Source: a virus
Lineage: Duplodnaviria > Heunggongvirae > Uroviricota > Caudoviricetes
Virus record (IMG/VR): IMGVR_UViG_2660238548_000003
Coordinates: 1-11,452 of that record
Reading direction: 5' to 3' (one strand)
DNA: 11,452 bases
Part shown: piece by piece, positions 9,409 through 9,724 of the stretch
How the letters are laid out: every line of letters begins with the position of its first letter
Numbering within the stretch: the stretch's first letter is position 1
Notes under the pieces: generated by a model
Told to the model about the DNA's origin: nothing
The model's input: only the letters and a program-made list of their open reading frames with translations
The model's database searches: none
Translations under genes and position numbers: made by a program

Positions 9409-9537
9409 ATGAACATCGAAGAACTGCGTAAAATTTTTTGTGAAGATGGCCTCTATGCTGTGTGCGTTGAAAATGGAAATATTGTTAGTCATTACCGCAT
9501 TGTGTGTTTGCAAAAAAAATGGGGCTGCGTTAATTAA
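9409..9537 (+). CDS. Small ORF (42 aa) that stops just after an A8 tract; the downstream frame continues to 9658 (likely frameshifted ~83-aa gene)
   Basis: ATG 9409 with AAGGA ~8 nt upstream; MNIEELRKIFCEDGLYAVCVENGNIVSHYRIVCLQKKWGCVN. A8 at 9512-9519; in the +1 frame the ORF continues ...KKNGAALINFVDGRVTDGFILRDGEFVTSLQALKEIGIKAGFSAFSEE (the track's 9440..9658 ORF, which itself begins at a GTG). Confidence 0.45.
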   Translation: MNIEELRKIFCEDGLYAVCVENGNIVSHYRIVCLQKKWGCVN

Positions 9538-9724
9538 TTTTGTGGATGGTCGAGTGACAGACGGATTTATCTTGCGCGACGGTGAGTTTGTCACTTCATT
9601 ACAGGCATTGAAAGAGATCGGAATAAAAGCTGGCTTTTCTGCTTTTTCAGAAGAATAAACTCATCTACAATCTTGCGCGGGGCTGAACTCCCGCTGAGTA
9701 ACACCGTGCCACCGGAGAAAACCG

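Follow-up and report, generated by a model that had tools for sequence, protein, structure and literature searches.

Frameshift at an A8 tract in the antirepressor gene rem of a lambdoid prophage in Shiga-toxin-producing Escherichia coli

[quoted passage not shown] Olav39. At positions 9409-9658 of the window a small open reading frame (ORF) ends shortly after a run of eight adenines (A8), with the +1 frame remaining open across the run. This raises the question of whether the locus is a pseudogene, a phase-variable switch or a slippage site, these being the three options put forward in an earlier sequence-only reading of the same DNA. The locus is very probably the rem gene of a Qin/DicA-type lambdoid prophage, broken by a fixed loss-of-function frameshift. 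The option of a pseudogene was thus retained, while those of a switch and of a slippage site were not upheld when tract lengths were compared, with no heterogeneity being found.

Anatomy of the split gene and its identity as rem

The following features were identified on and around the locus.

9065-9187, + strand: hok remnant, the C-terminal ~40 codons of a HokD-type toxin gene (PF01848 on the 40-aa product)
9258-9275, + strand: terminator-like hairpin with a T run at the 3' end of the hok remnant (consensus match alone)
9298-9327, + strand: sigma-70 promoter-like sequence TTGAAG-18-TAGAAT, 5' of rem (consensus match alone)
9394-9400, + strand: Shine-Dalgarno-like GGAAGGA, 8 nt 5' of the rem ATG (read directly from the sequence)
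9409-9658, + strand: rem pseudogene, the whole antirepressor gene with a +1 frameshift (310/310 aligned bases identical to the intact rem of strains AREA_497/E66)
9409-9537, + strand: truncated frame, 36 native Rem codons followed by six out-of-frame codons (KWGCVN) and TAA
9512-9519, + strand: A8 homopolymer, site of the single-base insertion (alignment and tract census; A7 in intact alleles, GAAAGAA in K-12-type alleles)
9518-9658, + strand: native C-terminal 46 codons of Rem (N37-E82) and stop, now in the +1 frame
9455-9658, + strand: 67-codon +1-frame ORF, called a hypothetical protein by some gene callers
9725-10003, + strand: 92-aa gene of unknown function (phrog_1212) adjoining rem, used as a marker of the prophage lineage

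The ORF at 9409-9537 was found to consist of 42 codons, with the product MNIEELRKIFCEDGLYAVCVENGNIVSHYRIVCLQKKWGCVN and a TAA stop at 9535-9537, while the +1 frame contains no stop between 9413 and its TAA at 9656-9658. Removal of one A yields a continuous Rem of 82 aa (83 aa where the allele begins with ATGATG) with 93% identity to Rem of E. coli K-12, where the sequence-only reading had anticipated a continuous protein of ~83 aa. The anatomy given in that reading (ribosome-binding site, 42 codons, A8 at 9512-9519 and a +1 frame running to 9658) was confirmed base for base, as was the location of the gene directly downstream of the hok remnant. The position of the GGAAGGA site was shown by alignment to be kept in both AREA_497 and K-12. 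Use of the alternative starts ATG 9446 and GTG 9440 extends the +1-frame ORF to 70 and 72 codons, respectively. A 68-codon ORF with a GTG start, lying antisense to rem (9388-9594, minus strand), is probably spurious.

The A8 run by itself is unremarkable. A run of at least eight A or T was present in 76% of Markov-1 simulated windows, and a second A8 run (3496-3503) was found within the DUF1627 gene (3385-4155), which is intact and in frame, so that tract length alone is not diagnostic of disruption. It is homology that makes the split ORF meaningful.

Comparison of positions 9380-9690 with 5,426 complete E. coli genomes using megablast resulted in matches to 2,290 records, nearly all of which carry the annotation 'rem: protein Rem'. 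The best two matches, from strains AREA_497 and E66 (WP_074516112.1), were identical at 310/310 aligned bases of the 311-nt stretch, with the sole difference being an extra A in the window. The alignment places this gap in the A run, which is A8 in the window and A7 in those two genomes. With one A removed, the fused product equals the intact 82-aa Rem of AREA_497/E66, and its identity to K-12 Rem extends over both halves. It also matched phrog_340 (function unknown) over residues 1-81 with an E value of 2e-24. A database search of the fused translation, as proposed in the sequence-only reading, therefore returned Rem, with the downstream frame conserved, and the homologues were found to be 82-87 aa in length and not uniformly ~42 aa, as that reading had allowed for. 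In the precomputed annotation of the protein collection, PF27490 (Rem) was assigned to the product of the downstream ORF. Profile scans with local copies of Pfam and NCBIfam returned no match for Rem, and a sequence search of the PDB returned no relative. Membership of the Rem family entails an intact frame of 82-87 codons, as against the 42-codon product of the window allele, which is a pseudogene allele of this family and not a functional member.

The gene order around rem is that of the Qin prophage of K-12, namely hok, rem, the 92-aa ORF, DUF968 (ydfU) and RusA or Q, and the lambdoid prophage of the window likewise encodes a DicA-type repressor. The two rem genes have a common location, flanked by hokD and the 92-aa ORF/ydfU, and they share the ribosome-binding site and a DicA-type repressor of 93% identity in the same element, in addition to the protein identity given above. 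They differ at the tract, where the K-12 allele reads CGA AAG AAT (R-K-N), with no homopolymer, an intact frame of 83 aa and the start ATGATG, whereas the window rem reads CAA AAA AAA T, is frameshifted after residue 36 and has a single ATG start. The allele class to which the window belongs has CAA AAA AAT (Q-K-N), and it is two G-to-A differences from the K-12 allele that produce its A7 homopolymer.

The window shares with AREA_497/E66 a mosaic block at 9086-9737 (~650 nt, comprising the 3' part of hok and rem), which is the same in these genomes bar one SNP and the extra A. The flanks of this block diverge on both sides, with the downstream 92-aa protein differing at 10/92 residues. Besides their A7 tract and different downstream alleles, AREA_497/E66 have genes for a Ser/Thr kinase and a phosphatase and an intact hokD upstream, where the window has P63C and the hok remnant. 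The 5' part of this remnant and its upstream regulatory region were found to be replaced by the end of the P63C gene, and an Rfam scan of the whole window returned no family at threshold, hok/sok included.

The slot occupied by rem is variable, and the closest prophages (L003 of strain 6817, at 10837-11004, and L183) carry a 55-aa gene (phrog_34610) there. That of strain 6817 was considered as a relative of Rem and rejected, as it is unrelated to Rem. On longer contigs of the same prophage as that of the window, a gene for an AraC-type regulator (PF12833, 237 aa; L175, 12911-13624) was identified after the Q antiterminator gene.

The extra A in the prophage lineage and in other rem copies

Homopolymers are classic sites of indel error and the A8 allele was identified in no complete RefSeq E. 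coli genome, which would suit a sequencing or assembly error at a locus whose true sequence is A7 and whose gene is intact. Such an error is extremely improbable given the data behind the contig and its relatives. St. Olav39 was sequenced on the Illumina MiSeq with 300-bp paired ends and assembled using SPAdes with a coverage cutoff of at least 20 (PMC4432327). Alignment with strain 6817, the closest complete genome, showed no coding-region indels over 6.7 kb and no other homopolymer indels, indicating that the assembly is not error-ridden, and the same A8 was found in 15 other assemblies.

These assemblies were reached by two routes. The 42-aa product was absent from a collection of 15 billion proteins, while A8-specific products of the +1 frame (containing CVCKKNGAAL) were found as a 67-aa form on 36 contigs and as a 70-aa form on two. 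All loci retrieved via the 67-aa ORF carried A8 (8/8), a route that is circular, and the neighbouring 92-aa gene was used as a marker independent of the rem frame. Loci retrieved with this marker also carried A8 (9/9, eight of them besides the window's own), and the retrieved A8 loci were 99.8-100% identical to the window across the overlap. Altogether, A8 was present in 16/16 assemblies of the prophage lineage (the window's own and the 15 others), deposited between ~2015 and 2025, and no A7 rem in the same context (the junction of P63C and the hok remnant) was found in complete genomes or IMG/VR. The A8 insertion is real and, within this prophage lineage, fixed and passed on by vertical descent. 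Near-identity of the flanks suggests a single origin, and the mutation can be called recent, as nothing but the extra A has changed in comparison with intact rem.

Two of the A8 loci show differences in their surroundings. L185, from the set retrieved with the 92-aa gene, has a different RusA/Q region downstream. L180 (GCA_011976265.1), retrieved via the 67-aa ORF and matching the window over 6016-10153, has the A8 rem block behind a different replication/DUF1627 region, and all eight of its mismatches cluster at 6028-6061, marking a recombination junction between prophage backbones.

The 67-aa form bears on the suggestion that the fragments are functional, with the 42-aa N-terminal peptide or the downstream ORF of 67-72 aa acting as a new small protein. 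At least 36 draft genomes have the downstream ORF annotated as a protein, and the out-of-frame N-terminus of this ORF, MLCALKMEILLVITALCVC, is hydrophobic. Reading of the sequence revealed no purine-rich Shine-Dalgarno sequence 5' of GTG 9440, ATG 9446 or ATG 9455, and such ORFs exist in A8 alleles only. Their difference from intact rem by no more than the extra A would have left no time for adaptation, and PGAP calls no CDS there in 8/9 of the loci retrieved with the 92-aa gene, in effect treating it as a pseudogene. A function for either fragment has a negligible probability, and the 67-codon ORF, like the 67- and 70-aa 'hypothetical proteins' recorded in dozens of draft genomes, is most likely an artefact of annotation that the frameshift has produced.

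Tract length was also determined in rem copies beyond this lineage. An exact-match census of complete E. coli genomes identified A7 in 203 records and A8 or A6 in none, using exact probes of 65-67 nt that would miss tract variants with SNPs in their flanks. The interrupted tract of the K-12 type, GAAAGAA, was found in ~1,880 of ~2,240 matching complete-genome records and in 90/148 rem copies of IMG/VR. A variable-gap pattern, able to detect A6-A9, was run on IMG/VR, metagenome and GTDB sequences and identified A7 in 58/58 IMG/VR contigs, 21/21 metagenome contigs and one GTDB representative (Shigella flexneri), and the exact A8 pattern was absent from IMG/VR. The uninterrupted tract was thus A7 in 283/283 sequences across four DNA collections, with no A6, A8 or A9, and ~170 extracted rem copies were nearly all intact, at 83 aa. 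The A7/A8/A9 heterogeneity that the sequence-only reading had proposed looking for was not encountered among close relatives, with the tract being A8 throughout the lineage and A7 in all 283 sequences elsewhere.

Frameshifted products were identified in the protein collection, where such null alleles are rare and come from draft assemblies. The A6 product (P0001, P0003; ending in CLQKMGLR), some instances of which may be 454 or nanopore errors, was found in two allele backgrounds, on 2 and 45 contigs, an A8 product with an MM start was found on five contigs and an A8 ORF of a third background on one, while no A9 product was found there. A8 has been seen in at least three allele backgrounds (P0046/P0047, P0031 and P0048). 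The two major intact A7 alleles were each found on 1,000 contigs or more, as against ~90 for the frameshift products. The A tract is the main frameshift hotspot of A7-type rem alleles, having received several independent hits, with each state being stable within its lineage. Other null alleles of rem were also observed, namely a 35-aa product on 40 contigs, such as a stop in place of codon 36 of K-12 rem would give, and a +1 change at the adjacent G4 run (P0012).

Were the tract a phase-variable switch, its length would change frequently from A7 to A8 (or A6) and back, making the antirepressor and the inducibility of the prophage stochastic. The homopolymer does lie inside an ORF whose frame is set by its length, variants of both +1 and -1 type are natural (A8 in three or more backgrounds, A6 on ~47 contigs) and an off state is plausibly beneficial, with Rem being toxic when expressed (PMC10448788). 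Against this, the lengths within and outside the lineage show no heterogeneity among close relatives, alleles and orthologues do not have the repeat in common, with most rem copies carrying GAAAGAA, and frameshift variants are few beside the major A7 alleles. Classical contingency loci, such as those of Neisseria, Haemophilus and Campylobacter that vary by slipped-strand mispairing, likewise have a mononucleotide run in an ORF that sets the frame. The tract of the window differs from these in being short, not conserved and free of polymorphism among close relatives, and in belonging to a mismatch-repair-proficient host. In E. coli with functional mismatch repair, the mutation rate of an A7/A8 run is lower by orders of magnitude than that of classical contingency tracts. 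A switch is accordingly very unlikely.

Loss of the Rem C-terminus and its predicted consequence for DicA

Rem of K-12 (P07010) has been experimentally shown to be an antirepressor of DicA (Ragunathan et al. 2023; PMC10448788), having been discovered through iterated searches seeded with GfoA (Gifsy-1) and FsoA (Fels-1) of Lemire et al. 2011 (PMC3121763). Ectopic rem increased expression from dicBp-lacZ 165-fold and caused filamentation and growth inhibition dependent on DicB and DicF (PMC10448788). In K-12 it is the relief of DicA repression by Rem that switches on dicBF, which is toxic, with relief at dicBp having been shown for K-12 Rem alone (PMC10448788). Two regulatory genes of the window are relevant to this activity.

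440-847, - strand: DicA-type short repressor of 135 aa, 93% identical to K-12 DicA, the presumed target of Rem
931-1161, + strand: DicC/Cro-like regulator, divergent from the repressor gene (PF14549, P22_Cro)

With a DicA of 93% identity encoded in the window, Rem and its presumed target belong to one element. Searches for a LexA box near rem, both with the full consensus allowing up to three mismatches and with CTG-N10-CAG, returned nothing, and the locus thus offers no evidence for SOS control in the style of Gifsy. The antirepressors GfoA, GfhA, GftA and FsoA of the Salmonella Gifsy and Fels prophages resemble Rem in being small proteins that inactivate a short, non-cleavable repressor of the DicA/GfoR type (PMC3121763), while their sequence similarity to Rem is distant. 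The Gifsy antirepressor genes are situated behind a LexA box and a dinI homologue, unlike the rem of the window. Frameshifts abolish the activity of these proteins, as with a single-bp insertion in GftA, and their expression selects for null mutants, with survivors having been found to carry mutations in the antirepressor gene (PMC3121763). These survivors illustrate the kind of selective pressure that is able to fix such alleles.

Residues 37-82 of Rem are removed by the frameshift, which keeps residues 1-36 and adds KWGCVN. When 13 full-length members of the family were aligned (68-98% identical to the first sequence), the invariant positions proved to be concentrated towards the C-terminus, comprising L56, R57, E60-L65, L68-E70, K74-G76, A79 and F80. 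The most conserved part of Rem is therefore lost, for which loss of function is the expected outcome, and the truncated product would be non-functional. The A tract itself sits in a variable segment rich in K, R and Q (Rem residues 35-37), and homologues of 86-87 aa have a four-residue K/R/Q-rich insertion (e.g. CLRKKQRKSG) exactly at the tract, which suggests a tolerant loop prone to A-rich codons. An AlphaFold2 model based on the 13-sequence alignment was of low confidence (mean pLDDT 59.5) and hints that the tract may lie in the loop joining strand 2 to strand 3, within an arrangement of a helix, five strands and a helix. The 42-aa fragment could retain some activity.

A probable history of the allele can be proposed from these comparisons. 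The two G-to-A differences from the K-12 allele create the A7 run, to which replication slippage may then have added one A. The resulting shift of frame after Lys36 ends translation six codons on, and with the C-terminal 46 residues lost the product would probably be non-functional, depriving the prophage of its own antirepressor route for inactivating DicA. This mutation is recent, and it is fixed and inherited vertically within the lineage.

The loss could be offset if the frame were corrected during expression, with slippage of RNA polymerase or +1 slippage of tRNA-Lys on AAA-AAA-A yielding a small but meaningful quantity of full-length Rem. If tRNA-Lys re-paired in the +1 frame at Lys36 (AAA to AAA), the product would be wild-type in sequence throughout. 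Rem is potent, as seen in the 165-fold derepression, and eight-A runs support productive slippage in some organisms, where indels in A runs can be partly rescued (PMC1088944). For correction at the level of transcription, the mRNA must either lose one A or gain two. In reporter assays with E. coli RNA polymerase, no poly(A) run tested gave detectable rescue of the deletion type, and a run of at least eight As was needed for rescue of the insertion type to be detected (PMC6260861). Many bacterial genomes show evidence of selection against slippage only in runs of 9 nt or more (PMC1088944), as against the 8-nt run in the rem gene of the window. At the level of translation, the A-AAA-AAA heptamer would promote a -1 shift, which leads to the wrong frame, and no stimulatory element (internal Shine-Dalgarno sequence, slow A-site codon) was evident. 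A recoding site typically has a run of at least 9 A/T or a heptamer that leads to the correct frame, and the site in the window has neither. The split arrangement is also not conserved, with homologues being single in-frame ORFs. Known slippage systems, such as Shigella mxiE (T9), IS elements (A9) and Citrobacter rodentium tssM (poly-A), similarly consist of two ORFs joined at a run in an enterobacterial gene (PMC1088944, PMC4256274), from which the window differs in its run of just 8 nt, in the need for a deletion-type slip and in the lack of conservation of the split among homologues. Nothing suggests a programmed frame correction, and a meaningful supply of Rem by this route is very unlikely, as is the switch, although a trace of full-length Rem might still be made from the A8 allele in this way.

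There is similarly little chance that the A7 tract serves as a slow, reversible toggle of the antirepressor, with lineages alternating between an inducible and a 'grounded' DicA-type prophage, or that the A8 allele is kept leaky by slippage at the RNA or ribosome level. Hints in this direction are that A6 and A8 nulls have recurred in several backgrounds and that the A8 allele has not decayed any further. A leaky A8 allele, if true, would tune the dose of a toxic antirepressor.

As a fixed loss-of-function frameshift, the window allele is a case of a known gene inactivated in an ordinary way, and the current understanding of such systems is unchanged. Its relevance, which is modest, lies in its being a null allele of the only known DicA antirepressor, within a prophage lineage of clinical STEC. 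It is predicted that the prophage, together with toxic genes of the dicBF type under DicA control, can no longer be switched on via Rem, which bears on prophage domestication. The recurrent inactivation of rem by A6 and A8 at the A7 tract, itself the result of two synonymous-like changes, is consistent with counter-selection of a toxic antirepressor.

Ongoing decay of the prophage fits with the presence of the hok remnant and of a second split gene. The latter is a DUF551-like gene found as two parts (7083-7322 and 7331-7864) that match the N- and C-terminal parts of phrog_660. This second decayed gene of the prophage is annotated as 'frameshifted' in strain 6817 too.
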